NCBI GenBank assembly: GCA_015680685.1
Contig: MNCI01001119.1
Coordinates: 1 to 58,897 of the forward strand
Source of the DNA: Gnetum montanum
Taxonomy: Eukaryota > Plantae > Gnetophyta
DNA: 58,897 bases
Reading direction: 5' to 3'
The notes beneath the pieces were generated by a model that searched no databases, had not been told where the DNA came from, and was given only the letters and a program-made list of their open reading frames with translations. A program made the translations under genes and the position numbers. This document shows, piece after piece, positions 15,701 to 58,622 of this stretch. Positions within the stretch are counted from its first letter, which is position 1. Every line of letters begins with the position of its first letter.

Positions 15701-16272
15701 TTTTCTTAGGAAAAATTACAATGTTTGAGACCTAATTGACGTAGTCAACTATGTAGATAAAACCATCTTTGTAAAGCTTAGTGATTTCATCATAGATAGC
15801 CAACACCACCTCAAGCTTGACTTTATGAGCTTTTTGTTTAACTAACTTTATGCAAGGATCAAGAATAATGTTATGCTATATTATGCGAGGCTCTAAGCCT
15901 GGCATGTCTTTGTAGGACCATGAAAATGCCTTGACATTATCGATAATGACTTTAGAGATACTTTGTTTGATTTAAGGCTCTAACAAGGAACAAATTTTTA
16001 ATGTTTTCACCTCACCTTCACATGTTACTATAGGGACTTCTATGAGGTGATCCTCAGTTATGTCACTTGCTTCTAAGTTTAAAGCTTTGACTAGATGGTC
16101 TGGCTAGTCTAGCAATGTCTCTAGGGATGCTACATTGTTTTCATAAGTGAATGGCTTGAAATCTAGAAGCTCAGTGTTTATGCATCTCGTGGAACCACCA
16201 TAAGGTCGAACAAGACTAAGGGTGAATGAAGACTCTCGTATGCATTTATTTTGCAATCCTACTTAAGAGATC
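12789..16272 (-). pseudogene. pol: Decayed pol of A: RT (TPWGMFCYTMMPFGLK, YVDDIVVKS), RNase H, archaeal-type RNase H (LQFDDVS..QGGSA; QHIPSNENAIADALA), integrase (..EGPFLV..HLYLKPYYT)
   Basis: ORF-track fragments 15051-15632, 14421-14663, 14001-14240, 12789-13133. Confidence 0.9.
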
Positions 16273-16810: not shown

Positions 16811-16818
16811 TATAAATA
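16811..16818 (+). promoter_or_regulatory. Candidate TATA box of the antisense accessory gene in A
   Basis: GGGTATAAATAGGG upstream of a purine-rich leader and a donor-like AG|GTAAGG at ~17088. Confidence 0.45.
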
Positions 16819-17299: not shown

Positions 17300-17880
17300 T
17301 CTGGATGTCTTACACCATGATGCAAGACAGGGTTTTCTGCGCATCTTGTGCCACAGCATGGAATAGGGTTATGCCATCTCACAACATGATGTAGGAAAAG
17401 GGTTTTTGGCATCCCACATCACAATGCAAAACAAGGGTTTTTAGCATCCTGCACTATAGCGCGAAACTAGGTTTGTGACATCCTACATTATGACGCAAAA
17501 TAGGACTAGGCCAAGGCATCTTATGGGTGATGATAGAGTGTAACAATTAGGGTAAGGTGACTATGAGGGTCACATCCATCACACCTAGGTGTCCCTCAAA
17601 GTGTAACAAAATGTTAGAAAAATTATAGTTTCCTAGTACTACACTTCATAGGTGACGTAGTGGACAATTAGAAAAATTTTGAAGTTGTTACGCTCTGTAG
17701 TGAGTGTAATTAACACTTTGAAAACTTTTTGCTAGTTGTTATGCTCTATGGAGTACATAACCAATAGTTAAAAAATTTGAAAAGTTTGGTAGTTGTTACG
17801 CTCTACATGGAGCATAATGAACACATACAAAAATTTTAGAGTTGAGGAGGTTACGCTTTGCAGGGAGCATAATCGGTAGT
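17300..17880 (+). repeat. Diverged short tandem repeats, including a GTTACGCTCT motif array
   Basis: GTTACGCTCT/GTTATGCTCT at 17687, 17738, 17795, 17850; GGTTTT..GCATCC units at 17320-17500. Confidence 0.55.
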
Positions 17881-18279
17881 TTGAAATTTTTTTGATATTT
17901 TTATAATTGTAATTCTTGTAGAAATGTAAGTGTTAGTGTTGTGCCTGATTGGGAACTAGGCACATTAGATGGGTATGCTAATATCCCTTTCTTGTGAGGC
18001 CTGGTGGAAGGCTAATCATGTTAAATATAATTTTTTATGAATTTTTTCATTTCTAACATTTTCCTTTTATTGCTATTGTGGCATTGTAGCGTGTTGCTGA
18101 AACCTATCCTCATCATAGTTGAATTGGTGGGCATTTTTTGTTATATGAGCAATCTTGTATAAAATGTGCTTGCACCAAACACACATGTCGAACAGCAGGT
18201 GGTTTGGTTTAGGTTAGACATACAAGAATTCTTAGAATTTTTACTCTACCACTTCAGTGTGATGATTTGGTTACACTTG

Positions 18280-21200
18280 TTGGCCGAAGTAGTGGACGTC
18301 ATAATAGAGACACTATTACTTGAGGTAAACTGAGCCATTCTAAGGTTCATGTCTAATGAGCCTATTGATGATGAAGGAGTAGGGAGCTTAGGCTACTACC
18401 AGAAAGGCCTTAGGCTTTTATCCAGGATCTAGGGAATGCCTAAGTTTCAATGCTACAACAAAAATAACACTATGTTTATCACTCAACGCACACACACTAT
18501 TTTCCAAAATCCACCTTGGATTGTATATTGTGCTAGAGGGTGAGCTCTGTTGTGATTTCTTATATTACCTATTATTTCATGACCTAGAATGCTAACTACT
18601 CATGTCTATTATTAGGTTTTCTATTGACACAAATGGCCTCCATGATGAAGAGGAAGCATCAAATTTGACCAAAACTAGCCTACAAGAATTCTCATCTACT
18701 AAAAATGTTCATGCTAGAATGATTGGGAAAATTTGGGTAGATTTGGTAGCATACCCTCATAGGTATTCCAAATGTTACGAGAGGTGTCAAGCTCTCGACT
18801 GATTGGACATTGAGTGGGAAACTAGTATACCAAGTGTGAAGGAAGTTTCAATCCCACTACCATCCTCCTATACACCATTTGTGCCACATAAGTCATATCA
18901 CTTGTTTTCATGCAGTTTTTATTTTTTTTGTCATCATGTTACTAATTTTTCCTTTGCTTATTATAGTTGTAGCTAAGTCAAGAGAGTTCATGGTGATTTC
19001 TTTGGGGCATACTGAGGCCACTCTCCTCTTTAAATACGGTGATGTTGAGAGCTCATAACACTAGTTGTGCTATGAGGCCTCAGTGGAAGTAGCAAAGAAT
19101 CTTTAGCAGGATAGCCTCATGGATCTCTTCTTAGCCATCAACCCAAACATCCCAGTGCCCAATATGATTGCCCTAATTAACTCCTTCATCGAGAGTATCG
19201 ATCACTTTTGCACATGGGTCTGTAATGTTTAGGTGATCTTTAAGATCATAGATGAACTCTTTATGAATATTTTCAGCATCCCCTCTAAACATTTACTAGT
19301 GGTAGAAAATATCAACAAGGACCTAGACCATAGAGGAGATGTTGAGAAATGGTTGGGTACTCAAAAGAGGCATAAAGGTATATCCATGAAGGTGGTGCAA
19401 GTACCCATGATCCACCAGCTCTACCTAGTCTTTCGAGCTTGTGCATTCTCCAAGCTACTTTTCCAAGGAAAGATCCTTGGGGTTGAGCAAGCTTGGGTCA
19501 TGAAAGACATGATAGAGGAGGAGACACAGTACAACGGGGCAAACTACCTCATCAATGGCCTATAGGCTGAAATCATTAATCTATGTACCAACCTCCAAGC
19601 ATGATCACACCTACATTTTTCTTTCTTCATAGCATGCTTATGAAGGTTTGTGGAACTTTTGATGATCCATGAGAATGATCAATGAATGGTGCAAGATTGC
19701 ACTGAGATCTCCAAGCCATGGATCTACCACCTATTCTACACCACGTAGTCATAGGACCCCCCGAAGGCAATTGGCAAGTCATTCTCAATGATGACTAAAG
19801 GACATGTGGGGCAATCCTACCACACATGTGATAGTGTTAGGGAGGCTACACCAACCAATAGTGGCAATACAACAAGATGGGCATGACTCATTGCTGAGAT
19901 GATGAGGTTGTTGAGAATAAAGATTAAGTAGACTTACCCCACGAAGGAGCCCATGCATGTAGTGGAGGAGGGGGACAAGAAGCTACAATTCAAGCTCCAC
20001 AACATGTGCTCAAAAATAGTTAGTAAGTATGCATTATTTAATGTTTCTATAAAGTGTCATACTATCTTATATTCATTATTAGACATTCTAAATAGAACGT
20101 GTGTAACATAGGCAAGAGGGCCCCTATAGTGGTAGAGGAGCTTGTAGAGGATGACGTTCATCAACCCAAGGGACACATGGTAGATGAAGACAAACAAGAA
20201 GCCGTCAAAGTGTTAAGGAAACTTGAGGAAGAAGGGTTGTAGTTTGAAGATGGTAAGCTTAAGAATTTCTTTGATGGAGTGTAGATGGGAAATCCCCCTA
20301 CTCTCACACCTAAGGGCTTGTTGGGTAGGAGATCTACACCACCATCTTCATTTTTTTTTATGTTTTTGGTGGTTTTGTTCTATTATTGGTTGTTGATTAC
20401 TTGATGATCATAAAGTGTATTATGTTGCAATGGCTGATGCTTCTACTAATAATTTGACATCAACCTCCACCTTTCGTACATAACTGTACATGAAAACTCT
20501 ACATAAGTTTTCCTTCATGCAAAGTGTGGTAGATGGTATGATAGACTGCCTCAAACAGATAGACCTTGAGATTGGTATATTTATTTTACTATTATTATAT
20601 TTTTCTTGTTTTATTACTAATTTTTTGTTTGTTTTGTAACTAATGTTATTTCGCCTATTATGGAATAATAGGCTTGTAGCTCAAAGGGACCCGAATAGAG
20701 TAGTCCAAGTCAATGTCCTACTTGAGTTCCCCTCGAAGTGGAGCAAGTGCCTCATCACATATATAATGAGGCAAGCAGGTGTGTACTATATTCTACATGA
20801 GCATTGTGGGAGTGTAGGCAAGTAAAAAATCACTTGTAGAGATAGGTACAAGAGCTTCAAGAAAAGGGGCTGAACTAGGAGATAAGACTAGAAGACCTAC
20901 AATCCTACTAGGACTTCCTAATGGCACACGATAAGCCAAATGGTAGTTAATGCACAACTAAAATCAATTATGCCATGTACTAGTTAGCTATTCATGGAAA
21001 AAATGAGGTCATCCATGAGGTTATTGAACAATGGCTATAGATGGATCTCTTGGTGAGAAAAAATCAAGATTGAAAGGACTACTATAGTACAAAGGTGTAT
21101 CAATGGGGAAAAACACAAAAGAATCACAAACATCACTACAACCTAGAGCACGAAGTGTACCACATGAAGTATAGAGATGATTTTGTGCAGCAAAAATGCT

Positions 21201-21690
21201 AAGAGATATTCCTTGATGCAATCAGTGCAAAATAGGCTTACAAACTATTCACAAGCAATGTAGTGTTGAGTGAGTCCCCAGAAAGATAGATCACTATACC
21301 TTTTGAGGAGGTAACTTCTACAATGTTTTCACCAAGGTCATCAACATGGATGACCATAGGAAAAGGAAAGACCCACATGGTCATTGACCTGGGTAAGGAA
21401 GACTGGACATGTATGTTGCAGCATGAAATCCTCTGATGCTTAGAGGTTGGCCTTGACAACATGCCCCTAGACATGGATGTGGGTCCTTCTTAGGTTGGTT
21501 TAGCTTACTTTATTATTTCTTTACTTTATTATAATTTTTCATGTCGCCTTGTTTATTGACTAATTTATTATTTTATTTCCATTTGACATAGGTTCTAGGT
21601 GAGGGTATGAGACCAAGTGGAGTAGCATATGAAGAGAAAGAGGAAGATCCCTAGTCCCTATTGCACACTACAGGCTGAGATGCTTAAAAT
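18280..21690 (+). pseudogene. Decayed multi-exon antisense accessory gene inside A (PMD/DUF1985-like central domain, tentative)
   Basis: Exons homologous to 54765-58239 (FRACAFSK..LGVEQA..YNGA), separated by AT-rich introns ~18540-18615, ~18887-18966, 20023-20111, ~20330-20430, 20575-20671, 21494-21591. Confidence 0.75.
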
Positions 21691-24988: not shown

Positions 24989-26648
24989 TAAAACACCACC
25001 AATTTTGGCCTAATACTATGAAACAAGAACTACTTAGTCTCTTTTTAGCTTTTGAGAGGCAAAAATTTGACTAAGGCATGGAAGTCACGCTGGGCTTGTC
25101 AAGCTGAGCTTGCCCCCAGCGTGAGCAACTACAACGACTTTAAGATCAAGTGAAAAATGATCCAATATGAGGGTGCAAGTCATCTTCATAGGGCCATTGT
25201 TATCCACTTCAAGTTTTAGGATTTGAGAGTTCAAATTTTGGGCTAGATTGTACAAATTTTCTTGGTCACACTAAGGTCACGCTGGTAGCGTGAGTCCAGC
25301 ATGAGCAACTACAAGGACCTCGAAATCGAGTCAAAATGATTTGAATTCAAAGGTGCAACTCATCCTCAAGGTTCGTTGATGACTAGTTGAAGTCCCAGCC
25401 TCCATAATTCTAGACTTTAGGTCCAAAATTACTAATCTTTTATAGGACACATTGTGGTCACACTGAGCTCATGTTGGCAGCGTGAGTCCAATGTGAGCTA
25501 CCAAAAGTAGTTCAAAACAAGGCATATCCAAACTCAGTTTTCGACTTGCAGATCACTCGTAGGGTCAAACATAGTTAGGAAATTTTTGTACTCAAGAAAT
25601 AGGCTTCAAAAATTAAAAATTGGTATGAAATGTATCATTTTCAGCTCACTCACATTGAGGTCATGCTAGCAGCATGAGTACAGTGTGAGTATTGATCATG
25701 TCCAGTCAAAAGCACACCAAAAACATGTTGAGGACATGCCACGATAAAATAAACTCATGCTGGAAGCTTTGGTGAAATAGAGATGACTCAAACTGCCACA
25801 AAACCACTTGCATCGACACCCTACAGTAGTCAATTCAGGGATCGAGAAGTTCCAAGTGAGCTGGAGTCAATTTCTCTTGTTGTACACTATCATTTCATTG
25901 TAAATTTTCATCATTTGTGAGCTTGTCAAGCTCTTACGCTTAAAATTGTATCTGCTTCTATGCATGTAAGCTAGCTTGTGTAAGCCAATACATGATGTAA
26001 GATACAGTGCATCAGGTCAAGAACGTAGCTTGCCTACGCATGCCCATCAAACACTTGTCACATAATCCGTCTTCCTCTCATCTCTCAGCCATCAATCTCA
26101 TCCATGAATTCCGCACCTGAATCTAGAAAAACCTTATAAATACCCTATCCATTCACATAAATAGGGTTGGCAATTTTAAAGGTTGATAGCTTTGGGAACA
26201 TTGACTAGCAACTTTGGGCACTTGGGCACATGTGACTCATAGCATCTTAGCACCTGAAACACATCACTCTGGGGCTTAGCTCTTGACTTGCCATCTACAC
26301 CCATAACTACACTTTGACTGGTGCACATCCTTGTTAAGTAATATAATATAGTTCATTATTTCCTTCCATTACATTATTTTCTTTGTTCTAATTCATTTTA
26401 TGCTTCTTCATATGCTTCGTTTACATTTCGTACGTTACTAGTTACGACAACCCCAACGCAAGCCATAGCTTATGCTCGAGGAAGTCCTTGGTTGATTTGC
26501 ATGCAAACCATCCAAGCTACTCTTCCTTCATTTCTTTCTTTTCCAACTTGCCCTCACACAAAGGTAGGATCGGCTGTGTCTCGCCAACAATCTTTCGGCA
26601 TTTGGTTTTTTCCCTTCCAACCTTACGTCGATGATTTCGGTCAGCACA
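24989..26648 (+). repeat. 5' LTR of B
   Basis: Colinear with 33460-35151; TATAAATA at 26135; ends ...CAGCACA. Confidence 0.9.
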
Positions 26649-26654
26649 GTAAAG

Positions 26655-26672
26655 TGGCACTAGAAGGAGGGC
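26655..26672 (+). promoter_or_regulatory. Primer-binding site complementary to tRNA-Asn
   Basis: TGGCACTAGAAGGAGGGC vs TGGCGCTAGAAGGAGGGC (reverse complement of the plant tRNA-Asn 3' end). Confidence 0.8.
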
Positions 26673-30958: not shown

Positions 30959-31449
30959 AGAAAAAGGAACAACTAAATAACTAGAGCAAACTATCAAGAA
31001 TCCAGAAAGATGTTAAACTAGTAACCATTTGGTATGATGTTAGACTACCAATGAATGTCTGTAATGATGTTAAACTAGCCATGGTCAGAAATGACCGATT
31101 CCTTTTAAGTTTCTTAAAGCTATTATCGCTTTCATCCCACTATGGCCTAAAACTAGTAATTCCTCTTTCTTTGTTCAACACAGAAACAATACCATGACTC
31201 TAAACTAATGTGCATGGCCTGAAATGGCCTTAAACTAGAGCTCAATATGTTTCAAGTTTACAAACTCTCATTACGTTATGTCAAATTTTCATTTACATGT
31301 CACAAGTTGCAATTTCAATTCATGCATTCTCGTTCCTTTTCTTTTTACAAATATTTTCCTTACATTTTGTTCTACATTTTGGAATCTCATTTTACATTCA
31401 GCTACACACATATGTTCACAATATGTCTGAGAAAATAAGAAAAAGAACA

Positions 31450-31472
31450 ATATATATATATATATATATATA
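31450..31472. repeat. (AT)n microsatellite
   Basis: Direct read. Confidence 0.9.
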
Positions 31473-31615
31473 AAATATTTAACGTCAACATGGCAATAGA
31501 ATGCCAACACATTATGCCACGATTAAATCCATATAATTACATCTATCCTCATACATTTCCATTAAACATAAAAAATTCAAAACATTTGGTAGCTAAAGCT
31601 AGACTAATAGGTAGT

Positions 31616-31850
31616 TCACACATCAGTACTAGGAGGGGGCTAGCCCCCAAAATCTTAGACATCATCTGCTCCTACTCCACTGGTGCCAACCTCATCATTA
31701 CTATGTCCCTAGAATGAAATGAAAAACAAACAAATAGGTAAGCATAACAAAAAAAATCATGAATACAAACCTAGAAGAACATTAACACTAACACTAAAAA
31801 TTATAAAACCATACAAAAGTAAGCACCATAATAAAACACTCACAGGTGAA
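31616..31850 (-). pseudogene. Remnant last exon and last intron of the antisense accessory gene in B
   Basis: Exon 31616-31708 reads GHSNDEVGTSGVGADDV*DFGG*PPPSTDV*, matching the last exon of D; intron 31709-31843 has GTGAGT...TTCATTCTAG on the minus strand. Confidence 0.8.
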
Positions 31851-33459: not shown

Positions 33460-35151
33460 TAAAACACCACAAATTTTACCCTAACACTATGAAATGAGAA
33501 CAACTTAGAGTCTTTTGAGCTCTTGAGAGGCAAAATTTTGGCTAATGCATGGAATTCACATTGGGCTTGTCAAGCTGAGCGTGCCCCCAGCGTGAGCAAC
33601 TATAAAGACTTCAAGATCAAGTTAAAAATGGTCCAATCTGAGTGTGCAAGTCATCTTCATAGGGCCATTATTGTCCACTTCAAGTTTCAGCATTCAGGAG
33701 TTTAGATTTTGGGCCAGATTATACAAATTTTCTTGGTCACATTGAGGTCACGTTGAGGTCATGTTGGCAGCATGAGTCTAGCATGAGCAACTCCAAGGAC
33801 CTTAAAATTGAGTCAAAATGATTTGACTTCAAAGGTGTAAGTCATCCTTAGGGTTCGTTGATGACTATTTCAAGTCCTAGCCTCCATAATTCCATACTTC
33901 AGGTCCAAAATTACTAAGTTTTTGTAGGACACGCTATGGTCACACTGAGCTCACAATGGTAACATGAGTCCAGCGTGAGCAATCAAAAGTAGTTCAAAAC
34001 AAGGCACATCCAAGCTTAATTTTTGACTTGCAGATCACTCTCAGGGTCAGAAATAGTTATGCTGTACTCAAGAAACAGGCTTCAAAGATCAAAAATTGAT
34101 GTGAAATGTATCATTTTTAGCTCACTCATGCCTAGGTCACGCTGAGGTCACACTGGTAGCGTGAGTATAGCGTGAGTACTGATCACACCCAATCAAAAGC
34201 ACACCAAACACATGCTGACACACCAAGATAAAATAAAATCACACTAAAATCTTTGGTGAAATAAAGATTCCTCAAACAGCCACAAAACCACTCGCATCGA
34301 CACCCTGCAGTAGTCAATTTAGGGATCGAGAAGTTCCAATTGAGTTGGAGTCAATTTCTCTTGTTGTACACTATCATTTCATTGTAAATTTTCATCATTT
34401 GTGAGCTTGTCAAGCTCTTATGCTTCAAATTGTATCTACTTCTATGGGTGTAAGCTAGCTTGCATAAGCCAATACACAATGTAAGATATAGTGCATTTGA
34501 TCAAGAATGTAGCTTTCCTATGCACATCCAGTTCTCATGCAATTGCCCATCAAACACCCATCACATGATTCATCCTCTTCTCATCTCTCATCGATTGATC
34601 TCATCCATGAATTTCACATTTGAGTCTAGCCAAACCTTATAAATACCCCGTCCATTCACATAAATGGGGTTGGCAATTTTGAAGGTTGACGACTTTGGGA
34701 ACATTGACTGGTAACTTTGGGCACTCGGGCACACATGACTCCTAGCATCCAAGCACCTGAAACACATCACTCCGAGGCTTAGCACTTGACTTGCCATCTA
34801 CACCCGCAACTACACTTTGACTAGTGTAGATCCTTGGTAGGTAATATAATACAATTCATCATTACTTTCCATTACATTGTTTACTTTTTTCTAATTCATT
34901 TTACACTTTTGTATATGCTTCGTTTACATTTTGTATTTTACCAGTTACGATAACCCCAGTGCAAGCCATAGCTTACGCTTAGGGAAGTCCTTGGTTGATT
35001 TGTGTGTAGACCATCTAATGCACTCTACGTTCATTTCTTGCTTTTATAGCTTACTCTCACATGAAGGTAGGGTCAGCTATGTCTCTTTAGAAATCTTTTG
35101 ACATTTGGTTTTTTCCTTTCCAGCCTTACGTCGATGATTTTGGTCAACACA
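33460..35151 (+). repeat. 3' LTR of B
   Basis: Colinear with the 5' LTR; TATAAATA at 34638. Confidence 0.9.
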
Positions 35152-35830: not shown

Positions 35831-35835
35831 ACAAG

Positions 35836-36201: not shown

Positions 36202-36205
36202 TTAG

Positions 36206-36830: not shown

Positions 36831-36895
36831 ATGATTTTAAAAATATGATTCACTTCTATTTCTTTGCAGTCTAATGATAGGCTCACCTAAGGCTT

Positions 36896-38503
36896 TGTAT
36901 TGATAGTAAAGAAATGTAAGAGTTATGCTTAAAATTATAAACAAATGCTTAGAAAAGAAATGAAAAAAAAAATCTTTAGAGTAGAGAAATGCATTGCCCC
37001 AAAATTGGAAAGTGTAACTTTTTCTTGAATAGGAGGTGAGAGTAGTATGCAGTGTCAGGCAAGCACAGTGGCTATGTAGTAGTGTAGTCATAGTCTCTAG
37101 GACATCAAGGTCATAAAGCTAGTAGCTAGAAGGGAGGCTAAACCTACTGGGTCAACTGTCACCATGTTCTACTAGTGCAAAAGTGGACCACGTTGCGGTA
37201 CTCACTAAGGGGTAAAGCTCGGATGCTTAAGTGCAGGACTGACAAGGATGCTCAGGAGGCTTGAATGCTTAATGCTCTTCTAATTTTCCAACCTCTAAAG
37301 TGCTGAAAATTGAGGTATTTATAGAGCTAGGTTTAGCATGAAATGCGGATTAGGCATCATGTGGCATGCATGCCATGTGGCATGAGGGTAGATAGGGTTA
37401 CGCTAACATGTTATGCTCTCATGAGAGTTGCAAACTATTACACTTTGAAGGATAACAACGGGTATCTAGAGATTGCCAAACTATGACCACACTACCTGGA
37501 CTACATGTGCTAGAGTCTGAGAGACTACAATGTACCTACAAATAGTGTCAAAACAATGCAACTTGGAGACTACGCTCCAAGACTATGTCTTCCCCCTCTT
37601 CCGAGTAGGGCCAAGCATAGGAACAATTTCAAGGATTAATGGGGGATGCAAAAGAAATGCAAACTATTGATCTTCAGTACCGAAGGAATGTTAGAGATAA
37701 GATGAAGGTCAATGTCAAGTTCTAGAGGCTTTTGGAGGCATTTTCCTAGTGTTAAGCTAGCTACGCTCTAGAGCGTAGCACAACACTTAGCAAAATATTG
37801 CAAAATTTTGGTTTGCCATATTGGTTATGCTGGCTATGCTACAAAGAATAGTAGAGTGTAGCAAGGATACTATGACAAATTTTGATGAAATTTGCAGTCT
37901 TCCTCCATGGCACACTATCTACACTTTGTGGCATAGCAGGGTAGGCAACTTTGGAAGCCAAGAAACATGCCAAATGCATCTTCCATGTCAAGCTAGCTTG
38001 AAAGATCCTTGTCTAACACTTAGGTAAATTAGGCATTGAAACTTGTGTCATGCTCACTACACTATGGAGCATAGCAGAGCATAGCAACCAAAAATATAGA
38101 AAAATTGCCAAACTATTTCGTCCATCTTGAGCACTTTTGACAAACTCTAGCCTAGTACTTGGGAAAACTAGCAATCGGGACATGTGTCAAGCTAGGTATG
38201 CTAGGGAGCATAGCAAGCTTGACAGCCTAGGAGATAGAAAAATTTCCAAACTATTTGGTCCATCCGAAGCAACCCTTGATCACTTTTGGCTTGAAACTTA
38301 TGCAAACTAGCCATGGAAGTGTGTGCTATGCTGGGGAGTGTAGCAAGACACTTAGGAAAATTTTGCGAAAAATAGGACCCAATGTGTGTTACGTTGTCTA
38401 CACTACAGAGCATAGCACCAGACTTAGAAAAACTTTGTCCAAATTTTAACACTTAGACAAATCTACCATTGAATCGCAGAAGCCTGAAATTGATGGTGTT
38501 TCA
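36896..38503 (-). repeat. 5' LTR of A (U5 end and PBS missing)
   Basis: Colinear with 9267-10928; starts TGAAACACC on the minus strand. Confidence 0.85.
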
Positions 38504-45035: not shown

Positions 45036-47074
45036 TGTACTGTCTAAAATCATCAACGTGAAGCTGGAATGAAACGGACACCGAGAGATCTACAGAAGAC
45101 ACAATAAGATCCCACCTTTCCATGAGGGTAAGCTGGAAATAAATGAAGGCAGAGTGCCTTGAATGGTCTACGGGCAGATCAAACAAGGACTTCCCCTAGC
45201 GTATGCTGCTGCGATGTGCTGGCTTATACATAAACAAATACAAATGAAAACATAAATGAATGTACGAAATGTAAGATGAAAACAAAATGTAAACAAAGAT
45301 AATGGAAATTGTAACAAATGTAAATGGCATAAACCGAGAACAATGGATGGAAAAATTGTAACTATATGTATTGATTGACGATTACAAAAAAAGGGTGCAC
45401 CAGTTAGAATGCAGTTGCGGATTGATTGCAAGACGAACGTTTAGCCCAGATGTGAAGGGTGTACAAATGCTGGGAGATTGTAGGTTTCTGGTTGCAGGCA
45501 TGTAGCATGACCAAAATTGCCCTGAGTGCTCAGCGTGACCAAGTTTGGATAATGCGTAATCATACGAGATAATGATGATCAGATTCACCAACTCTCTAGA
45601 TCTTGATGCCTCAAAATTGCCAACCTTGGTTTAGTGTGAGATTAGGGTATTTATGTAGGTTTGAGCATGGGACTCAGATCTGTGTGGAAGATCCATGGTT
45701 ACCGGATGTGGGAAATGCTAATCGGGTGACAGGTTTGAACATTTTGACCAGATGCACATAATTTTACAATGTACAGGGTGCAGCATGACCAAGATCTCTT
45801 ATGGTGGCATGTGTGATCCACAGCGTAAGAGCTTGATACACTAAAAAATGCAAGATGTACAAATAGTGTTAAAGTACAAGAGTGGATCTGGATGTTTGGC
45901 CTCTGGATCTACAGATCTTTGTTTTTTTTCTCTACCAAGGCCTCTAGCATGCATGGATCTAGTTCTAGCATGTTTGTAGCATGTCCTGGTGTTAGCGTCT
46001 AGGGTCCAGCGTTTATGCTGTGCATATGCTAGTGTTAGCATGCCCGCATGACCAATGTTTACACTAGGGATACGCTGGTCAACATGACCTCTAGTGTGTC
46101 CATAAAAAATGATGTATTTTGAGCCCAAAATTAACTTTTGAGACCTATTTTTGGAGTGGGTCTGCATGCCTGATGTTGAGAGGATTCTGCACATCAAATT
46201 TGAGCTGATCTGGCCTTGGATTTGTGTCTCTTTTGGTTGGTCATGCTGTGGTCACACTGTGCAGCGTGACCTCAGCATGACATCAACGTGACTAAGTGGA
46301 AATGACACATTTTGAACCAAATTTTGATGTCTGATGCCTGTTTCTTGATGTCCAACTGCTGCTTTCTCTCCAGGGTGGTCTGGAGGCTGAATCTAAGCCC
46401 AATTTGATGTTGTTTTGGTCGTCTTTTATTTGGTCATGCTGTGGTCATGCTATGTAGCGTGAAGTTAGTGTGACCAAGTTAAAATGACACATTTGAAGCT
46501 TGAGAGTTAGTACAGTTGTTGCCTGTCCCTTGAGGATTGAGTTCATGTCGAAATTGGACCTAAAACTGCTTGATGTGCCCTTTTTTTTCTTGGTCACACT
46601 GTGGTCACATTGTGCAGTGTGACCTCAGCATGACCAATTGAAAGTGGCTCAAAACATGTGATTATGAACTTAAATTTCGAGGTTATGAAGGCTGGAAGTT
46701 GTAGGGGCCATTGACGAAGCTCATGAAGGGTCTGTGTGCTTGAATCTAGACTATTTGGACTTGATTTTGGGGCTCCAAAAGTTGGTCACGCTGTACACAT
46801 GCTGGTCTTACGTTGGGCAGTGTGACCATAGCGTGACCAAAGTGTATATAGTGAAAATGATGCATTTTGTGATTGAAACCCTAGATTCCAGATGCTGGGA
46901 GTTGGTGTAATTGCCTATGGACCCCAGGGGAACTTTGCTTGTTTAATTGTGTCTCATTTTAAACTGTTTTGGAGGCTCTCAAGTTTGGTCATGTTTTACT
47001 CATGTTGGGGTAGTGGCATGACTTATCTTGAGTCCTATCTAAAAGTGCTAGGCCAAAATTTTATGGTGTTTTTC
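45036..47074 (-). repeat. 3' LTR of D
   Basis: Both ends homologous to the B LTR ends; rich in CAGCGTGACC motifs. Confidence 0.8.
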
Positions 47075-48409: not shown

Positions 48410-48752
48410 CTCTATGGTGTTAGTTTATCATCATAATGCCAGGACGAATCTGTGGTATCAGTTTACCATCCTGATGCTAGGACGAGTCTATGGTATTAGT
48501 TTACCGTCATGATGCTAGGATGAATCTATGGTATCAATTTACCATCATGATGCGAGGATGAATTTGTGATATCAGTTTACCATCATGATGCCAGGATGAA
48601 TCTGTGGTATTAGTTTATTGTCATGATGCCAGGATGAATCTGTGGTATTAGTTTACTGTCATGATGCCAGGACAAATTTGTGGTATCAGTTTATCATCAT
48701 GATGCCAGGATGATTCTATGGTATCATTTTACCATCATCATTCCAGGACGAG
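48410..48752 (-). repeat. 38-bp tandem array (~9 copies) in the 3' UTR of D
   Basis: Unit AGTTTACCATCATGATGCCAGGATGAATCTGTGGTATC with a 38-bp period. Confidence 0.9.
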
Positions 48753-48770
48753 TGCATACCTTAACTTTTT

Positions 48771-51700
48771 TCAGACATAATATAGTTTGAGGTACATGTG
48801 GTTTGTTGGATTAGCAAACTCATTGCCATTCATATCAGCCAAGTTGAACGTCCCATTTTTTTATGCCTTAGTGACTAAGTAAGGCCCTTCCCAGTTGGCT
48901 GTGAATTTGTTTGAGTGGTCACAAACTACCTTGAGGACTAGGTCACCTTCCTTGATCTGCCACTTATGTGGATTGTGCTGATGACATCGCCGTTGTTGTC
49001 TCTGGTACTATTTGATTTGATTGAGCGCTTGTATCCTTTCTTCTTCCACCAAGTCAAGGTCAAAAATGCATAGCTCATTGTTCTTACCTTCATCGAGGAG
49101 GCTAGAGAGTGTTATCCACAATGAGGAAACCTATAACTCCAAAGGTAAGACAGCTTCAAATCCGTATACAAGGCTATATCGTGTCTTACCTATGGATGTA
49201 CAATGCATCGCTCGATATGCCCATAGCACGTAAACTAGCTATTCATGCCATCTTCTTTTGCTCTGATGAAGTATTTTCTTGAGCACCATGATGATATTTT
49301 TATTCATGGAATCTTCTTGACCATTGCTTTGTGGGTAGTATGGTGATGAGAACGAGTGTTTGATGCCTACGCTCTCATAGAAGTTTTTGGTTTCGGCATT
49401 GCTGAAATGTGGTTCATTATTGGTGATTATGGTCATTGGGATGCCAAAATGGGTTACAATGTTCTCAAGTATGAAATTTCACACTTGCTTGGATGTGGTC
49501 TTCCTAAGGGGAATAGCTTCTACCCATTCTGTGAAGTATTCAATCGTGGTGATGATAAAGCTATGTCCTGCTAAAGATGGGGGAGTTATCGGTCCAATGA
49601 TGTCTAACCCCCATTTCTGGAAAGACCATGTGATTTGTGTTGTATGTAACTCATTATGTGGCACATGTATTAAATTACCATGCTTCTGACAAACGTTGCA
49701 CATTTTGACCTTGAAGAAATAATCGTATTCCATGTGTGGCCAATAATAGCCTAAATGTCTGATTTTCATTGCCATTGCCTTAGGCGCTATGTGCCCTCCG
49801 CAAAGTCCTTCATGAACTTGCTCCAGGATCGTGTGACCATCAATGCTACTAACGCACACTAACAAAATTCCTTCATAGGATCTATGACATAACATTTCTC
49901 CTATTAGCGCATATTGTCAAGAATGGTTTTGCACTGCGTCTCTTTGAGCATTTGTTAGATGTAGTGGCGGTTCACCATGTAGAAGGTACTCTTTTATGTC
50001 ATCATAACATTCCACTACATGTGTGGTACTAACGGATGCTATAAGTATGTCATCAGGAGTGTCGGTTGCGGGTTTGGCATAGTTCGTTATGGAACTAGGC
50101 AACACATAAAACATGTCAGGTGTCACGTTTAAGGCTAGTGTTGTGAGTGCATCTACGATGGTATTTTTGTTTCTGGAAACATGTTGCACGTCTATTTTTG
50201 TTAACTATTTCATCAAGTGCTTATTTAAGTCACAGTACAGTTGTAAATGTGAAGCTTTGCATGCAAAAACATCCGTGACCTGATTGATTATCAGCTGTGA
50301 GTCACCTTGAACTACGAGCCATGTGATTCCTAAAGCTAGTCCTACCATAAGACCTCTAAGAATACCTTCATACTCTACCATATTTTTGATACAAGGGAAG
50401 TTTAATTGATAGGTAGAGGATCAAATTTCTTTAGAGGGATATGTTATGATGGTTGTAGCACTTCCTCCTCGGAAGGTTGATGGTCCATCAAAGTATAAGA
50501 TTGCATCATAGTTGTCAGGTACGGTGTCTATGGCATTCACGTTCTCATCAGGGAACTCAGGGTTGATTGTTGCATGGTCTTGCATCTGTGAGGCAGTCAT
50601 TTGATTGACTATTGCTTGACCCTTTGTGGAAGATTGACCTATGTAGCGCAGGTCAAACTCAACAATCATCACCTTCCATCTAGCTATCTTGCTTGATTCG
50701 TAAATGTTATTGGTGATAGCTCTAAGCACATTATCTTTGCAAATAATGTTGACTTGGTTATGGAAGAGATAATGTCACCACTTCTTCAAGGAAAAGATAT
50801 GGGCTAGACATGACCTCTCCATGTTGTTGTATCTCCATTTGTGGGCCACTAAGGCATGGCTTAGGTAGTAGACAGGGATTTCGGTTCCATCTTCTCGTTT
50901 CTGACAAAGCATAGACGCGATAGATGAATCCGATGTTGCAAGGTAGATGTAGAAGGGTTTGTTATTCTGTGGGGGATAAACTGTTGGTAGTTGAGCTAGT
51001 GTCGTTTTGATGTTCTCAAAGGCTTCCTGGCACTGTTGAGTCCATTGAAAATGGGCATTTTTGTGCCATAAATGCTGCATGGGTTTCAACTTGTCCATCA
51101 GTTTTTTGATGAAGCACCTAATAAACTGTAATCTACCTTGTAGACTGTGTATTTTAGTAAGGTTGCTAGGTGGCTTCAAATTTTTTATTACCTTAACTTT
51201 ATTGGGATCTACTCTTATCCTTGTTTTAGATACTATGAGTCCAAGCATTTTTCCTATTTTGACCCCAAAGACACATGTCTTTGGGTTAAGTCTAAGCTCA
51301 TACTTGAGACAATGTTTAAGCACCACGATGTCATCTATGTAATCATGGAGCAAATCAAGCATATAATCACTAAAGATGTAATTCATCGCTCGCTGATATG
51401 TAGCACCGACATTTTTTAGACCAAATGGCATCATTGTATAACAAAATGTGCCCCATGGTGTCATGAAGGTTGTCCTGAGTTGATGTTCTGGGTTGATCCT
51501 AATCTAGTTGTATCCTGAGAATCCATCCATATAAAGGACAACAATGCATGCCTGGCAGTTGAATCAACAAGTTGATCAATACCAGGTAGGGGGAAGTCAT
51601 CTTTTATGGTTGCTATGTTGAGGTCATGGAAGTCAATGCATAGGCGAATGCTCCCGTTCTTCTTTGGGACTACATCCATGTTGGATACCCAATCCGTGTA

Positions 51701-52240
51701 GTCAATAGATCGGATGAAACCAGCTTGGTAAAGTTTCATGATTTCATTACGAACTGCTAATGCTACCTCAGGTTTAACCTTTCATGGTTTTTGTTTCATC
51801 GGTCTAAGTTTTGGATCAAGGATGATGTTATGCTAGACTATTTGAGGGTCTAGTCCTGGCATATTAGTATAGGACCAAGCGAATGCGTTCATGTTGTCTT
51901 TCAGCACTTGAGCTATGTCACTGGCTAGTTGTGGATTTAATAGAGTACTCATTTTTAGTATTTTAACTTTTCCATCGGACATAGTAATGGGGACTTCAGT
52001 GAGGGGATCTTCAGTGATTTTGTCAGCTTCTAAGTCTAGAGTTTTCATCATTCCCCTAAAGTAATCAAGTATCTCTTGTGTTGATACCACGAAATTGTTA
52101 TAAGTTGATGATGAGTCTAAATCAATGGATTCTAGATTGACTTCTTGTTGAATGGCCCTGTGTGGTTCATTGATAGACAACGGTGAGAAAAGGTGCTTGC
52201 TATCCATGTGTTTTCCCCTACTAATTAAATAGGGAGCCAT
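48771..52240 (-). pseudogene. pol: Decayed pol of D: RT (YIDDIVV), RNase H (YLATSDSSIASML), archaeal-type RNase H (LYFDGPS..GGSA, QGDSQLIINQV), integrase (HEGLCGGH..CNVCQ, WGLDIIGP)
   Basis: ORF-track fragments 51833-52240, 51461-51739, 50775-51464, 50421-50729, 49917-50189, 49479-49895, 49239-49436. Confidence 0.92.
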
Positions 52241-52619
52241 GTGAGCAAGGGTGAGTTGCTATTTTCTTGTAAAGTTAATTTTTATGTCTTAATGTAACTA
52301 AGGCATGTGATGAATAGTTTATCATCATACATGGACGCTTGGCAATTTTAGGCCTTACTAGGGCCAGGTGTGGTAGTTTAAGGCCATATCGGGCTAGCTA
52401 CCAGTCATGTTTGAAGTATATACAAGTATTATGATTTTTGTGATTGTTGGATTTTTTTTGTCCAAATGCATGGGTTACTTTGCAAAACTTAATAAATATG
52501 CACGAGAGAAATGAAAAGAAGTAGCTACTTTGGGAGCACAAGTATAAAGTAAAAATAAATAAGAGGAGAGAGGACATGGCACCACGTAATTACAAAATGG
52601 GATAAAATGGCCCCAAATG

Positions 52620-54280
52620 TAGCGTAAGCGTGAGTAAATGGACATAGTGTAAGTTTAGAGGACCAGTGCATATCATGAGCTATTGGATAGCAATGCAACA
52701 TGAGCGACTAGGAGTGTGCAGCGTGAGTAAGATGAAGGGTAAGGGGAACTAGGAATGGGGAAAGGGAAGCAGGAATGGGGAAAGGGGAAGAAGCAGAAAA
52801 TCTTGGGGTTTGTGAAGGAGAGCAAGGAATTACTCCAACAACTTCCACAACCTAGGGTTACTTTGTGGGTTGGAACCCTGCGCAGGTTTATTCCTTCCCT
52901 CCTTTCCTATTATTTTTCTTGCAGCGTAACATCAATGAGTGGCAGCATGAGTTATGAGAGCCACAGATTTTTGGTGTTTGTGGGCGATTTCTGGTTGTGT
53001 TGAGAGTGACTTCATTTCCTCCCTACATTTCAGGGTTTTTGTGTTCCATTTTAATTCATAATTGCAGTGTGATTTCCCCTAAGATTGCAACGTGAGTGGC
53101 CCTAAAACAATCACGTATTAGTGCATTTTTGTTGCATTTTTATGCATTTTTTGTGCATTTTTTGTTATGTTTTGAGCATCTATTATTTTGATTTGGACTT
53201 GGGGCTACTATTTTTATTCCTGTTGCTGGTTTTGAGCTATCATGAGCAACATAGGGCATGCCCACAAGGAGCATGAGTCGTAAGGATTGCCACCCTTTGG
53301 GTATTTTTGGTTGCATTTTGGCTGGGAGAACCAGTGTTTTGAATTGCTATTTATTATGGCATAAATTGCAGGGCTACATCTCTAGCATTAGTTGCAAGGA
53401 TGTTTGAAATATAGCATGTTTTAGGGCCTTTTAGAACATGGTGTGATTTACTAGCCTCCAAACCAGGACGTGAGTGATTGGTTCCTACTACAACATGAGC
53501 TCATGCATTACTAATTTGCAGTGTGATTGCTCCTTAATGTTTCCCCTCTTTTTCATCGTGAGTTATCGTATTTAATTATTAGTGTAAGTGAATTGATTGT
53601 GGTGTGGGGAATTGGACAAGGGCAACGTGAGTAACTGTCCTTGTTACAACGTGAATACCCGTCAGGCTTGCTCAGCGTGAGTAATGACTTTTGCTTGGTA
53701 GCATGAGGGGTTTGCTTCGGCATGGTGAACTACTATTGGCAGTGTTAGTGACTACCTTGTAGCATGAGTCAATGTTGGTAGGGTGATCAACTACCTTGGT
53801 ATTGCATCGTGAGCCAACCTTGAAGTTTGTGCTACAAGAAAATTACAGTGTGAGGTAACCACCTTATAGTGTTAGCTACTTCCTTGGCAACATAAGGCAT
53901 TCTGTTGGCTATGTGAGATAATGTTTTCACCTAGCAGTTGCTTTGGTAGCGTGAGTTTACTATTCACCATGGTGTGAGCAACCTTACACACAACGTGAGC
54001 AACCTCATGTGCAGCGTGAGTTTCTTCCCACATACAGCGTGAGTGACTGCCAAGTATAGTGTAAATTGTTGTCTTTAGTTGCAGTTGTAGCATTACCAGT
54101 TCCTACTACACCATGGGTAACCCTCATTGTCACATGAGTTGGCTATCCTGGCAATGTGAGTTAAATTTATCATGAGCTACTGCCATCTCCAGTTGTAACA
54201 CAATTGATTTACCATGTGTAGCATGAGTTTCTCCTATGTGTGGTGTGAGTTGTAGTATTTAAAATAGCGTGAACTATGTG
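52620..54280 (+). repeat. Dispersed (G/A)CGTGAG motif cluster upstream of the antisense gene in D
   Basis: GCGTGAGT/ACGTGAGT/GCATGAGT at ~52628, 52721, 53090, 53468, 53626, 53675, 53762, 53949, 54014, 54037, 54221. Confidence 0.7.
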
Positions 54281-54568
54281 ATACTTTTCACTTATGAGTG
54301 TGATGATTTTTGGTAACTTAAACCATTAATGTGATTTTTGCAAACGTTATCCTTTTAATGTTGGTGTTACCTAGTGGATTCTAATGTTCCCCATTGAGTG
54401 TTAGATACACCAAACAAATATCGGAGTTCTTGTCCCAAGGGGTAATCTTGCATGTGCGTTGAATGTTATTTACTCGTTAGGTTTATTTACTTATTTTTTT
54501 ATTTTTTTTGTTTAGTTTATATGTTTTATATGTTTTAAGTTACTTACTTAAGGTTCTGCTCTATGCAG

Positions 54569-57500
54569 GGGACTTAAGCCTTTTCTTTTGGTGGTGGAAC
54601 TCATGGGTGTGTTTTCATGATTTGGTCCCTTGGAGCCTAATGCACCTTGTCATGACATGGAGATAAGATCACAAGGGTTATGGTTTCATTTGGGCTCTAG
54701 TGAATTTTTATCATTTATCCTGTAGGGTTTTAGCATGGTCATCTGGTCTCATTTAAGTGAATAATTGGCTCGTAGTATTTTTGAGACCATACTACTTGGC
54801 TCATCTCATGACATATTGGCCTTCATCGTTGATGTGGATGAGGGATTATTAAAAGTTAACGGAGGTCCTACCAAAGGTCCTCGATCTACCTGTCCTCTAA
54901 CTTGTGTTTGGGAGTTACCATCTTGTAGCCACTACAATAGTAGTAACACCTTTTTCCTAGCTTTCCATGTACATACATTATTCCAAAAGCCGCCTGGAAC
55001 AGTGTACAGGGTGGAGAGGTAAGCTTTCTTTTTTTTATCTTTATTTTGTTTGCTTTGGTGTTATACTGTTGTTTATGTTTGACTATCTTTTCCTTGGTAG
55101 GCCCCATTTTGATGAGCGTGGGATGCGCAGGAATGATGATGGACTCGACTTAACGTGTACAGCCTTGGAGACTTTCATGGTGGGCCCCACTCTTCATGGT
55201 ACTATGTTGGCTCAAACGAAGGGTGCTATTATCCATTATCATAAGTAGTTTTCTAGGGTTTTTGAACATTGTGAAGCTCATTGGTGGCTACATGAAGATT
55301 GGTCTCGCAATGGACTCACTTTCCCTCAAGCATTTGATCTAATGCCAAGTGTGCCTGATCCATTTGCTAATGGTAAGTGATTGTGGTCTAAGCTTCGTTT
55401 TTATCTTTGCTACCCCATTGTTTATCATGATGTTGATTTTTTTTTGTTTAACATGTTTTTACAATGGATATTACCCCTGGTGGGGTTACCATCGTGTCTG
55501 GGAGTACTGAGGGTATCTTGTTCATGAATTACAGGGAGACGAAAGATTCGCAATGGTGGTTGCATACAAAGGCACCTCAACATGTCATCACTTGCCTTAC
55601 CGATGCTGGTCTGATGGATCTATTCAGTGCCTTGACTCCTAACGTTCCCGTGACTGAAATGGTTTCCATCATTGATTCTTTCAATGATGATATTACTTAT
55701 TTTAGCACGCGATTTTGGGGGGTTAAGGTGGTATTTCATCGTACTACCAAATTCTTTTCAGATCTCTTTGGTGTACCAGCATATGGTGTCAAAGTAGCAG
55801 TGGACAAGGCCAACAGAGAAGGTCATGTGATTAAGGACCTTGAGGAATGGTTGGGTCTGTCACGGGGTTCCAAGGGCTTCCCTATGCAAGTGGACTCTAA
55901 AGTGATGGAAGTGAATTTGTTGTACCCATTGTTTAGAGCATGCACATTTTCAAAGTCTCTATCTCAAGTGAGAACTCTTGGGGTAGAGCCCGCATGTATC
56001 ATGCGCTCGATCCTAGAGACTAGTATGCATTATAATTGGGCATAGTTCTTGGTTTTAGGCTTCCATGGGGAGATTATCAGATTACATTCTAACGTGAATG
56101 TGCAGTCCCACTTCACTTTTGCGTTGAGTTCCTAGTGGTCCATGGAGGTAGTCAGTATGTGTTGAGGGACCATGCCCAAATATCTTGCCCTTGGATTCAT
56201 CACCTGTTCATCCTTACCAGATCACAAGATGCCCCTGAAGGTATTGAGGAATTAGTCTCCGTTACAATAGGGGGTGTTGCTAGTCATTCCCACCATACAC
56301 AGGATAGCATAGGGTTGGAACCACCAAGGTTGCATAGCACTGCCAGGAGAGCTGATCGTGTGATCAAGGAGACAATCGAGAAGGCTAAGTCTAAGGTGCA
56401 GAGACCTAAGCATCTTAGGGAATCTAGTCCGAAGACTAGATCACAAAGAGAAAAACACATTAGATTCATATTTCCAAAAAAAGGTAAGTATATTTTTATT
56501 TATTGTTAGTGTTTTTATCTTGCTTTTTTGATTTTATTCATTCATTTAAATTGGTATGGTTACTATGTCATGTTAACTTTGAATTTATGAATGTCATTAG
56601 AGGAAACCCCTGGAAGAGAAAGGGAGGAATCAGCTCTAGTGGTTAAACTAGAAGTGATTCCCACTAAGATGGATGGGAAAGAAGAAGAAGAAGCTCATGA
56701 ATAAGTGATCAGGGAGATTCTCATTTCCCTAGAAAGAGGTGAGGAAGAAGCCATGGAAACGAATCTTGCAGATGGTTCAAATGTCTCCAGACATTCAAGT
56801 GAAGAGAGAGAGATATTTGATGGCTACTTTGAGGGGTCATTACATCTTGATGACCCACCTGAGTTGACCGACCAAGGAATTTTCGATATGTTTTAATTCT
56901 TGCTCTATGTTTTCCTCTATATTTTTTTTGGTTTTGACTGGTTACGAAAATTTTTGTTGATACAAGACTTAAGTGCTGAGACATCGGAGGCTCATAATCA
57001 TCGAATAGAAGTACTGAGATTATGGACAATAGTTGAAACGAAAACTCAAGTTCGTCCAAAATCCACAAATGAATCTAAACTATGGCTTAAAATGCCAAAC
57101 AAAGTGGACTTTGTTACAGGCATTATCAATGATGTGGTAGCTTGTTTACAAGAAGCTAACCTTGAATTAGGTATGCACATGTGATGTGTAACATCAAATG
57201 ACCTGAGTTAATTCGTTGTGTTTATTTGATTTTTCATTGGCTAAGTTGTGTGGTTCTTGTATTGGTAGGTGCCAAGCTTTAATGGGACCCTTGTAAGGCA
57301 ACCCATATCAATGCTCTACCTGAACTTCTTGAAGACATTGGACAAGTTTCTAGAAAGATTTATGATGCAGTTGTAGGTTGTGTGGTTCAAAATGCTAAAT
57401 CTCTCTGGACTTGCAGGCGTTCCATTGAACATTTTTGGCAAAAAGTTCAATCGGCAGAAAAGAATGTTGCCAAGCAAGCAAAAGAGAGAAATGACTACAA

Positions 57501-58239
57501 AGCCCATTATGATTTCACATTTTCTAGGTTGGTGGGTGATAGTACTTGGCATACTTCCAAGATCACCTATGCTCATTATTGGAATATCCTAAACAGTAAG
57601 GTACATGTGACTTGGGAGCTAGCTAAACAAAGGGTCCAAATTGATTTGTTGAATCGAAAATGTCAAGAGTGGAAATCCTTTGTCACCAAAGTATGTAAAT
57701 GGGTCCAAGACCAAAAAGATCACAAGTACCAGTACAAGAAGTCGCTAAAAGAAGAGTCCATTGAATGCCATCAGTTGGATATTTTTGTTGAGGTATTGGG
57801 CTTACGCACTTCCTATGATAGGTTTGTTGAATGTACGGTAGTGGAGGGGTCTCCTAAGCGATCCATCACTACTACCTCTGGGGAAGTTTTGGTAGGCCAA
57901 TTTCCTCTTGAACATCCTTCCTAGACATCGGTGGACAAGGGTAAAGCTGTAGTCGATGATGATTTAGGTCTTGAAGAAGATTGGTCATGCATGCCAGAAG
58001 AAGAGATTCTTCATCGTATAGAATTTGGTGTTAGACCTTCTTCTCTTGTAAGCATTTCAGTCTTGTAACCTTTCATTATTTTTGGTTAGTTTTTTAATTC
58101 ATTTTTTGTTTACTAATTAGTTGTTTTTGTACTTTTGTTGTTGTAGGGTCAAAATGGTGATGAGGGCGGCCCTAGTGGAGTCGGACCTAATGATGTAGAG
58201 GAGTTTGGGGATCAGCCCCTTCCTAGCACCGATGCCTAG
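54569..58239 (+). pseudogene. Multi-exon antisense accessory gene in D (mildly decayed; PMD/DUF1985-like central exon, tentative)
   Basis: Exons ~54569-55018, 55101-55372, 55465-56483, 56601-56876, 56967-57170, 57269-58047, 58147-58239; mostly canonical GT(AAG)...AG introns, two splice sites mutated. Confidence 0.8.
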
Positions 58240-58622
58240 TTTAGCTTGTTATTCTTGTTAATCTTGTCATTTTTTTGTTGTAATTTGTTATTTTTGATAA
58301 TCAATGGGGACATGTAACCTGATCATGATATAATACAATACATTCACACATTTTTTTAGCTCTTTTCTTTTAAAAGATGTAAGAGGAATGATAGTGATGT
58401 AGATAACATGTAAAGGGAAATTGTAATGTGTAAAACATAAAATATGGCTAAGAATGTAAATAAGGAATCTGATTTTGATGAAACTTAAATGCACTGTGTT
58501 CTAGTTTAAGGCCATCTTGGGCCACATGTGTCAGTTTAAAGTCATGACGGACTGTTTTACTTATGTTACGAAAGAGGGGGAAATTTTAACTATTTTTGGG
58601 TAGTTTAACATCATTTCGGATG

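Follow-up and report, generated by a model that had tools for sequence, protein, structure and literature searches.

The retrotransposons of the window and their antisense gene

The window, that is, the whole stretch of 58,897 nucleotides that was analysed, is a nest of old plant Ty3/Tat LTR retrotransposons with the pol order RT-RH-aRH-INT. The elements are referred to as A, B, C and D. Element B, on the plus strand, is inserted into gag of A with a decayed target duplication (GCCAC/ACTAC), and element D, on the minus strand, extends past the window edge, its gag lying outside the window. The main features are listed below, and the sites counted in the LTRs are the short words described in the following section.

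8960..10928, minus strand: left LTR of A (left end approximate), with 22 AGCGTARC-type sites and five head-to-head pairs at a gap of 4
12791..16250, minus strand: pol of A, RT-RH-aRH-INT in a single frame with stops
18097..21660, plus strand: antisense gene of A, broken, between gag-PR and pol of A
24989..26648, plus strand: 5' LTR of B, with 15 sites in four clusters ~192 bp apart and a head-to-head gap of 3
31160..31830, minus strand: remnant of the antisense gene in B, last exon and 3' end only
33460..35151, plus strand: 3' LTR of B, with 13 sites; 85.5% identical to the 5' LTR of B (K2P 0.166, mostly transitions)
36896..38503, minus strand: right LTR of A, truncated on the left, with 19 sites and five head-to-head pairs at a gap of 4
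45036..47074, minus strand: 3' LTR of D, with the PPT at 47075 and 21 CAGCGTGAC-type sites
48778..52258, minus strand: pol of D (RT, RNase H, archaeal-type RNase H, integrase), with stops and frameshifts
54569..58240, plus strand: multi-exon antisense gene of D, broken, collinear with the A gene (tblastx)

The Pfam order in the pol of both A and D is RVT_1, RT_RNaseH, RVT_3, Integrase_H2C2 and rve, and the RT/RH parts of the two are 61% identical. In both, aRH sits between RH and INT, as in the Ogre/Retand type of the Tat clade; if the host is a gymnosperm, this order would extend a layout described for flowering plants. A PBS-like sequence, TGGCACTAGAAGG, occurs at 26655 (B) and 43210 (C), and we take it to resemble that of conifer elements. 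The LTR pair of A has diverged by a K2P distance of 0.180, mostly through transitions. In place of the 5'UTR and LTR edge of A, positions 35800-36895 hold G-runs and a GC-rich stretch that resemble an assembly junction, and the two LTRs of A may therefore stem from separate insertions. Near-perfect two-copy duplications around a single N (5969-6082, 9194-9282 and 32999-33085) are probably gap-filling artefacts. Element A also interrupts an older plus-strand Ty3 element at 3900-8830, which is unrelated to it, comprises gag, protease, RT, RH and the start of integrase, and contains neither of the words described below.

Element B retains gag-protease, the last exon of the antisense gene and the integrase end. 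The rest of the antisense gene and most of pol are missing, so B is non-autonomous, and its remaining content marks it as a D-related deletion derivative.

In A, gag-PR (22.3-25.0 kb) and pol (12.8-16.2 kb) are separated by ~6 kb, and the antisense gene, which contains introns, is located there, between gag-protease and RT. Its homologue in D occupies the same place relative to pol, and the C-terminal exons of the two genes are homologous (tblastx). The module of ~6 kb that carries the gene between protease and RT spans 16.2-22.3 kb in A and 52.3-58.6 kb in D and probably lies inside an Ogre-type intron. A box, AGTTTAAGG[C/T]C, is found at 16419, 21891, 21993, 31226 (reverse), 52375 and 58503 and borders the antisense module, at both ends in A and D and at one end in B. 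The DNA around this box is unalignable between A and D, and the box may be a signal for splicing or for the boundary of the module.

RNA reads from four runs of two studies with the same species label were placed on D at 80% likeness. Those at least 99% identical to D numbered 14 of 2516, 2 of 851, 0 of 887 and 1 of 609, nearly all reads coming from other copies. Joints in the RNA of related copies were seen at 58044-58154 in all four runs (19, 19, 2 and 6 reads), where 18 other letters intervene, and one of the four runs also had a joint at 55369-55466 (3 reads). They bracket the introns predicted at ~55373-55464 and 58048-58146 of the plus-strand D gene, which suggests that some family members are transcribed and spliced, the D copy itself being broken. 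In the two apparently stranded runs, pol reads at 48712-51495 are mostly antisense to pol and oriented like the spliced plus-strand reads.

Two parts of the antisense protein are considered here:

54573..55018, plus strand: first coding exon of the D gene, with a weak NIF/FCP1/UBLCP1-like HAD domain and ELxG at the expected place of the catalytic DxDxT/DLNG
55467..56123, plus strand: conserved core of the antisense protein, 36% identical to the A core

The first coding exon of A (18097-18540) scored 16.4 bits against Pfam NIF, below the gathering threshold of 21.8 (E=0.0073), and that of D gave no Pfam NIF match. A two-sequence profile of the exon had as its top PDB match UBLCP1, a NIF-type phosphatase (E=0.032). 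The catalytic aspartates are absent, ELxG standing at the expected place in both A and D; we take DxDx(T/V) to be the catalytic motif of the FCP/SCP (NIF) HAD phosphatases. The resemblance of the exon is thus a weak one, to an FCP1/UBLCP1-type phosphatase without its catalytic aspartates. Its structural model (pLDDT 33.6, best Z 3.8) was too poor for the fold search to be informative. The central core has stretches reminiscent of motifs of the plant mobile domain (PMD). The antisense protein gave no match to Pfam PMD, DUF1985, Transposase_28 or Transposase_32, no PDB sequence match to VANC and, for four pieces, no NCBIfam match, and no homologue was returned by large database searches that included a profile search of 1.84 billion representatives. 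The AF2 model of the core, built from two sequences, had a pLDDT of 34, and fold searches with it were uninformative. In searches for further families, viral_contigs gave no relative; metagenome_contigs yielded 23 loci, all distant (best segment 27-56%; best full-length 35-42%), none of which encodes the antisense core.

Short words in the LTRs and beside the antisense gene

An earlier note on this DNA had claimed that D repeats words with a GCGTGA core in both its spacer and its LTR, that the B LTRs share them, and that A carries a one-base variant in its own LTRs and spacer. The D words are present as described (CAGCGTGACC at 45531 and 46262, in reverse at 46784), and GTCACGCTG/CAGCGTGAG were found in both B LTRs. 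The A variant also occurs in both compartments (TACGCT at 10168, 37399, 17689, 17797 and 17852; AGCGTA at 37772; the positions reported earlier were accurate to 1-2 bases), but it differs from the D word by 2-3 bases rather than one. The core shared by D and B is the 8-mer CAGCGTGA, the full word being CAGCGTGA[C/G], and the A word is AGCGTAGC/AGCGTAAC, i.e. AGCGTA[G/A]C. At the ninth position, C prevails in the D LTR (19 of 23 sites) and G in the D spacer (16 of 20 sites), and both bases occur in the B LTRs.

Exact matches within 52601-54300 number 12 for CGTGAG (mean 0.22 and maximum 2 among 300 shuffles) and 7 for GCGTGA (shuffle mean 0.27). Because the copies are methylation-decayed, CG, TG and CA were pooled in one class for a decay-aware count, in which CG>TG/CA and CAG>TAG/CAA were taken as equivalent. 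By this count there are 16 D words in the D spacer, 21 in the D LTR and 15 and 13 in the B LTRs (shuffle maxima 3-4), against 0-1 in any A compartment or any of the pol, antisense-ORF and 3'UTR regions tested. The enrichment in LTR and spacer relative to coding DNA, which the earlier note named as a check, is borne out by an unbiased scan in which 1,024 decay-aware classes were ranked in each of 17 regions. AGCGTGA is the top class in the D LTR (18 vs 1.33 expected) and in both B LTRs. In the D spacer it comes second (15 vs 0.89 expected), behind an overlapping shift of the same word. The A LTRs are led by AGCGTAG and TACGCTC and the A spacer by TACGCTC and AGCGTAA. No class in the coding regions (pol and antisense ORF) fell below a corrected p of 0.03, and other strong classes came only from plain tandem arrays in the B 5'UTR and the D 3'UTR. 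The counts of D words and A words are reciprocal between D and A in the LTRs (21/0 vs 1/22, p=2e-11) and in the spacers (16/1 vs 0/13, p=1e-7), these p values being descriptive because the patterns were derived from the same data. In 1-kb bins across the window, DNA outside the motif compartments never holds more than one D word or two A words. Taken together, the counts confirm that the words are real, non-random, family-specific and confined to non-coding DNA.

The LTR of element C gave no significant class in the same scan; its region 43641-43975 holds five copies of TGGCTA[TA/CA] at a step of 10-11 bp, possibly a more decayed third variant. A second, GCTTGTCAAGC-like word is common to a 27-bp tandem array in the B 5'UTR (26997-27190; 5 copies) and the B LTRs (2+2).

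Within the LTRs the words are arranged in pairs and clusters, which in D are located as follows:

46240-46292, 46433-46474, 46593-46634 and 46785-46837, no strand assigned: inverted motif clusters in U3 of the D LTR, with an 11-bp step and a head-to-head gap of 4

The D and B LTRs have four clusters ~160-193 bp apart, each consisting of 2-3 sites at an 11-bp step that face 2-3 sites in the opposite direction. The clusters fall in decayed tandem units of ~190 bp upstream of the TATA box (in the 5' LTR of B, the sites lie 400-1050 bp upstream of the TATA at 26135) and are, by eye, the best preserved part of these units. Between homologous units of B and D, the ninth base differs in a concerted way. 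The pair YACGCT-Nn-AGCGTR is found with n=4 five times each in the left A, right A and D LTRs, with n=3 in the B LTRs (3 and 2) and with n=8 three times in the A spacer; none occurs in the pol of A or D. The A and D LTRs thus have the same pair geometry although they are not alignable (no blastn similarity at word 7, E<0.05).

The words beside the antisense gene lie in the following spacer features:

52626..54273, plus strand: D spacer motif field, with 28 copies of (CG/TG/CA)TGAG on the plus strand, 16 of which fit the strict decay-aware CAGCGTGAG
17537..17873, no strand assigned: A spacer motif cluster, with AGCGTAAC-type sites and three head-to-head pairs at a gap of 8, partly in local duplications of 55-108 bp
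16811..16817, plus strand: TATA box, the probable driver of the A antisense gene

The D field occupies the non-coding DNA that separates the start of the minus-strand pol from the antisense gene's first coding exon. Of its 30 copies, 28 are on the plus strand, whereas the LTR copies form inverted clusters; the copies are often separated by 21-26 bp, and G takes the place of C as the ninth base. The D spacer has no blastn similarity to the D LTR (word 7, E<0.05). The flanks of the 28 copies are at background identity (0.266 vs 0.263; 0.258 vs 0.262) and are unrelated beyond ~11 bp, which indicates that the word alone has been kept. Two unrelated stretches of D share one 8-mer, and the sister family A shares another. 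Among related genomic copies, intact GCGTGAG with different flanks was seen in 4 of the 24 loose-end matches shown. The D spacer family is high-copy under four organism labels (278-543 contigs per run for 53600-54300), with motif units gained and lost.

In A, the spacer copies are on both strands (6+7), and a few matches of 15-24 bp (E 0.01-0.04) connect the spacer to the LTR. The words had been placed in the region upstream of the antisense gene. They do lie beside it, but the A cluster, which is downstream of the TATA box at 16811 and of a donor-like sequence at 17088, is probably within the first (5'UTR) intron rather than upstream. On the opposite strand, the acceptor-like sequences of pol come after the stretch with the A cluster, and an acceptor-like sequence precedes pol in both A and D. 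A second decayed CG-rich repeat of ~42 bp lies at 17300-17520 of the A spacer, to the left of the motif cluster.

Decay of the sites and candidate binders of the words

The copies directly justify the pooling of CG, TG and CA. Aligned LTR sites are often TG in one copy and CA in the other, and 11 of 14 B sites have CG in one copy or a TG/CA pair. When 53600-54300 was compared with related genomic contigs, 11 of the 40 differences shown (of 295 in all) fell in motif sites, 10 of these 11 toward CAGCGTGAG. An enrichment of such differences in the sites was considered and rejected, 11 of the 40 shown on 26% of the stretch being none; the differences show only that decayed forms descend from the CG form. 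CG was kept more often at the sites of the A LTR pair (4/7 vs 1/19, p=0.01, one of three tests), no more often at B LTR sites (1/8 vs 7/37 kept in both copies, p=1) and not significantly more often at D sites than in the 3'UTR array (12/28 vs 3/16, p=0.19). Transversions between LTR copies were not significantly fewer in the sites (B, 3/135 vs 58/1516; A, 3/142 vs 60/1452). Retention of CG, a test that is weak in both directions because the copies have been dead for a long time, is therefore mixed and gives no clear sign of anti-silencing.

The earlier note proposed that the antisense protein recognises the words. The family-specific words, their presence in two compartments, the dimer-like geometry and the spliced-looking reads speak for this proposal; the mixed CG retention and the negative searches for a PMD or VANC match, which leave the DNA-binding fold putative, speak against it. 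With moderate confidence, we read the words as sites for the accessory protein that the element itself encodes and with which they would co-evolve; this protein would activate its own family specifically or counter its silencing. Where a word changes together in two non-homologous compartments and the pair geometry is kept, the simplest account is a binder that travels with the element, for which the antisense protein is the one candidate lacking a known job. It should be noted that the D LTR and the D spacer do not agree in their ninth base or their geometry (paired vs one strand), which we count against a self-encoded binder, and that the co-variation of protein and word was compared in two protein-bearing families only.

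The words could instead be enhancer arrays for host transcription factors, each family having converged on a preferred site in both of its promoters. The TATA box is 400-1200 bp downstream of the LTR clusters, which thereby occupy the usual place of U3 enhancers, and both words include the CGT[GA] core of NAC sites, which the available text of PMC10203392 gives as TTNCGT[GA] half-sites in an inward palindrome with a linker of 5-6 bp. However, NAC/bZIP sites, raised earlier as a possible explanation, do not account for the words as far as the host types tested (NAC and G-box/ACGT) are concerned. Half-sites of the NAC type, TTNCGTR, show no enrichment (D spacer 1.8/kb, D LTR 3.9/kb, B LTRs 7-8/kb vs pol 5.9-6.0/kb). 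The same holds for the NAC palindrome, whose orientation is opposite to that of the pairs seen here, and no motif region contains a G-box. For a conserved host factor, one would also not expect the word to switch by 2-3 bases in both of two non-homologous compartments while the pair geometry stays the same, and we consider host enhancers rather unlikely. The strand bias of the D spacer (28 of 30 copies on one strand), the position of the D field just upstream of acceptor-like sequences before pol, and the inverted-repeat form of the LTR clusters would suit words that act in RNA or as hairpins, the U3 clusters giving rise to hairpins or small RNAs and the spacer copies serving as splicing or packaging signals of the protease-RT intron. 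The minus-strand D word also contains CUCAC, which we take to be branch-point-like. This account is nonetheless unlikely in our view, as the A spacer copies, on both strands, are without CUCAC, the facing half-sites of B are mostly mismatched at the ninth base (G at 7/7 on the plus strand; C at 5/8 on the minus strand), and the constant 11-bp step fits double-helix phasing.

A neutral origin, in which tandem amplification and template switching spread a chance word through non-coding DNA, would agree with the ~190-bp decayed tandem units that hold the LTR clusters, with the partly local duplication and the presence of a few LTR matches among the A spacer copies, with the gain and loss of spacer units among related copies, and with the lack of significant excess conservation in the sites of LTR pairs. 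We nevertheless judge it improbable, since the flanks in the D spacer are at background, without LTR homology and with the other ninth base, the motif clusters are by eye the best kept part of the 190-bp units, the same pair geometry is found in unalignable A and D LTRs, and the 3'UTR tandem arrays of the same elements are without the words.

If the antisense protein is the binder, it would bind DNA as a dimer or multimer via its central domain, which may be PMD/VANC-like, going by short motifs. Its occupancy of U3 would drive genomic RNA, and its occupancy of the sites next to the antisense gene would complete a positive feedback loop. With the word and the protein diverging in parallel, activation would stay within each family, and B, in which the gene is lost and D-type words are kept, would borrow a D-type protein. 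The degenerate CTD-phosphatase-like N-terminal domain might, speculatively, be a docking or decoy module and not an enzyme. The complete proposal, namely that a fusion of a pseudo-CTD-phosphatase and a PMD, encoded antisense in the gag-protease/pol intron, binds family-specific head-to-head arrays in the LTR and its own gene and lifts silencing, is tentative, and we would sooner doubt it than accept it.

Relation to known systems and significance

A retrotransposon-encoded circuit like that of VANC had also been suggested in the earlier note. The target pattern agrees with this suggestion; the antisense protein has no homologue in the databases searched. In the part of PMC5735166 available, VANC binds words of 8-9 bp in non-coding TE regions, which differ by at least 2 bases between families. 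The likeness to VANC/VANDAL in that text extends to the 8-9 bp words in non-coding regions, two variants per family, a multi-exon accessory gene, a difference of at least 2 bases between the words of related families (here two families only) and, in part, links to tandem repeats, which here involve the 190-bp LTR units and the A spacer, the D-spacer flanks being at background. VANC/VANDAL, however, are Mutator-like DNA transposons, whereas the carrier here is a Ty3/Tat LTR retrotransposon with LTRs, a PBS-like site, a PPT and RT-RH-aRH-INT. The words here also contain CG and CHG, the LTR sites are phased head-to-head, and there is no DUF1985 match. Because its carrier is a retrotransposon, the system is not a member of VANC/VANDAL; it is VANC-like in target pattern. 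A resemblance of the C-type D word to VANC21 YAGTATTAY (6/9) was dismissed as chance, being reached by 5% of random 9-mers.

Among the Tat elements, the Ogre/Retand type shares the RT-RH-aRH-INT order (PMC6317226, in part), a protease fused to gag and apart from pol, and an extra ORF. In the portions of PMC4408406 and PMC6317226 at hand, Tat extra ORFs are described 5' of gag or 3' of pol; the gene here is antisense, has introns, lies between protease and RT and has a weakly FCP1/UBLCP1-like start, and its position is outside the four extra-ORF classes of PMC6317226. The Ogre sense ORF 5' of gag is not matched (B has no ORF of 100 codons before gag, and the A 5'UTR is missing), nor is the Retand/TatIII antisense ORF between pol and the 3' LTR, these regions being 1.7-1.9 kb with no 100-codon ORF outside pol. 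According to the text available, TatIII and Ogre extra ORFs carry a PMD, at other positions (PMC4408406), and a regulatory DNA-binding role has been suggested for Retand ORFs (TRP28; PMC11963269); a target word is not reported for Tat extra ORFs in those parts of PMC4408406, PMC6317226 and PMC11963269. In its predicted fold, the PMD is structurally similar to the VANC domain, and PMD-A is encoded by retrotransposons (10.1101/2024.09.27.615353 and PMC13547354, both in part). MAIN, MAIL1 and MAIL2 (PMD-C) oppose silencing, have specific, partly palindromic M1M/M2M motifs and work with a phosphatase-type partner, PP7L, in the accessible text of 10.1101/2024.09.27.615353 and PMC7156037. These are host genes, however, PP7L is PPP-type and not HAD-type, and the motifs are compared here by their description.

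The closest arrangement is that of the Sirevirus U3 palindromes, which lowers the novelty of the arrays themselves. As far as the text of PMC4728375 was available, Sireviruses have about four U3 palindrome loci that differ among families, and Giepum has extra palindrome copies near an accessory env-like gene. They are Ty1/copia SIRE elements with a 17-bp palindrome common to Ji and Opie, whereas the domain order here is that of Ty3, and in the same text the palindromes are read as cis-regulators and hairpin small RNA/siRNA hotspots, a self-encoded binder not being proposed. In the literature covered, much of it seen in part and with most subscription papers outside its scope, we found no sequence-specific anti-silencer encoded by a retrotransposon, no antisense gene placed between PR and RT, no NIF-domain extra ORF or such a fusion, and no matched LTR-spacer word in a Tat element. 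The small text supplements of PMC6317226 contain no NIF match, and its larger files may bear on novelty.

In the papers found, as far as their text was available, sequence-specific anti-silencing is described only for VANDAL DNA transposons. If the proposed circuit is true, it would be the first retrotransposon counterpart of VANC and would provide the long-sought function of the Tat extra ORFs, in a group whose Tat, Ogre and Retand elements fill many large plant genomes. Predicted target words and a defined geometry are available from the two sister families, and the D protein on the D vs the A word would serve as an in-built control of specificity, so that the question is testable in one binding assay. 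If true, the circuit would help explain how these elements amplify in heavily methylated genomes and how gene-less derivatives such as B ride along.
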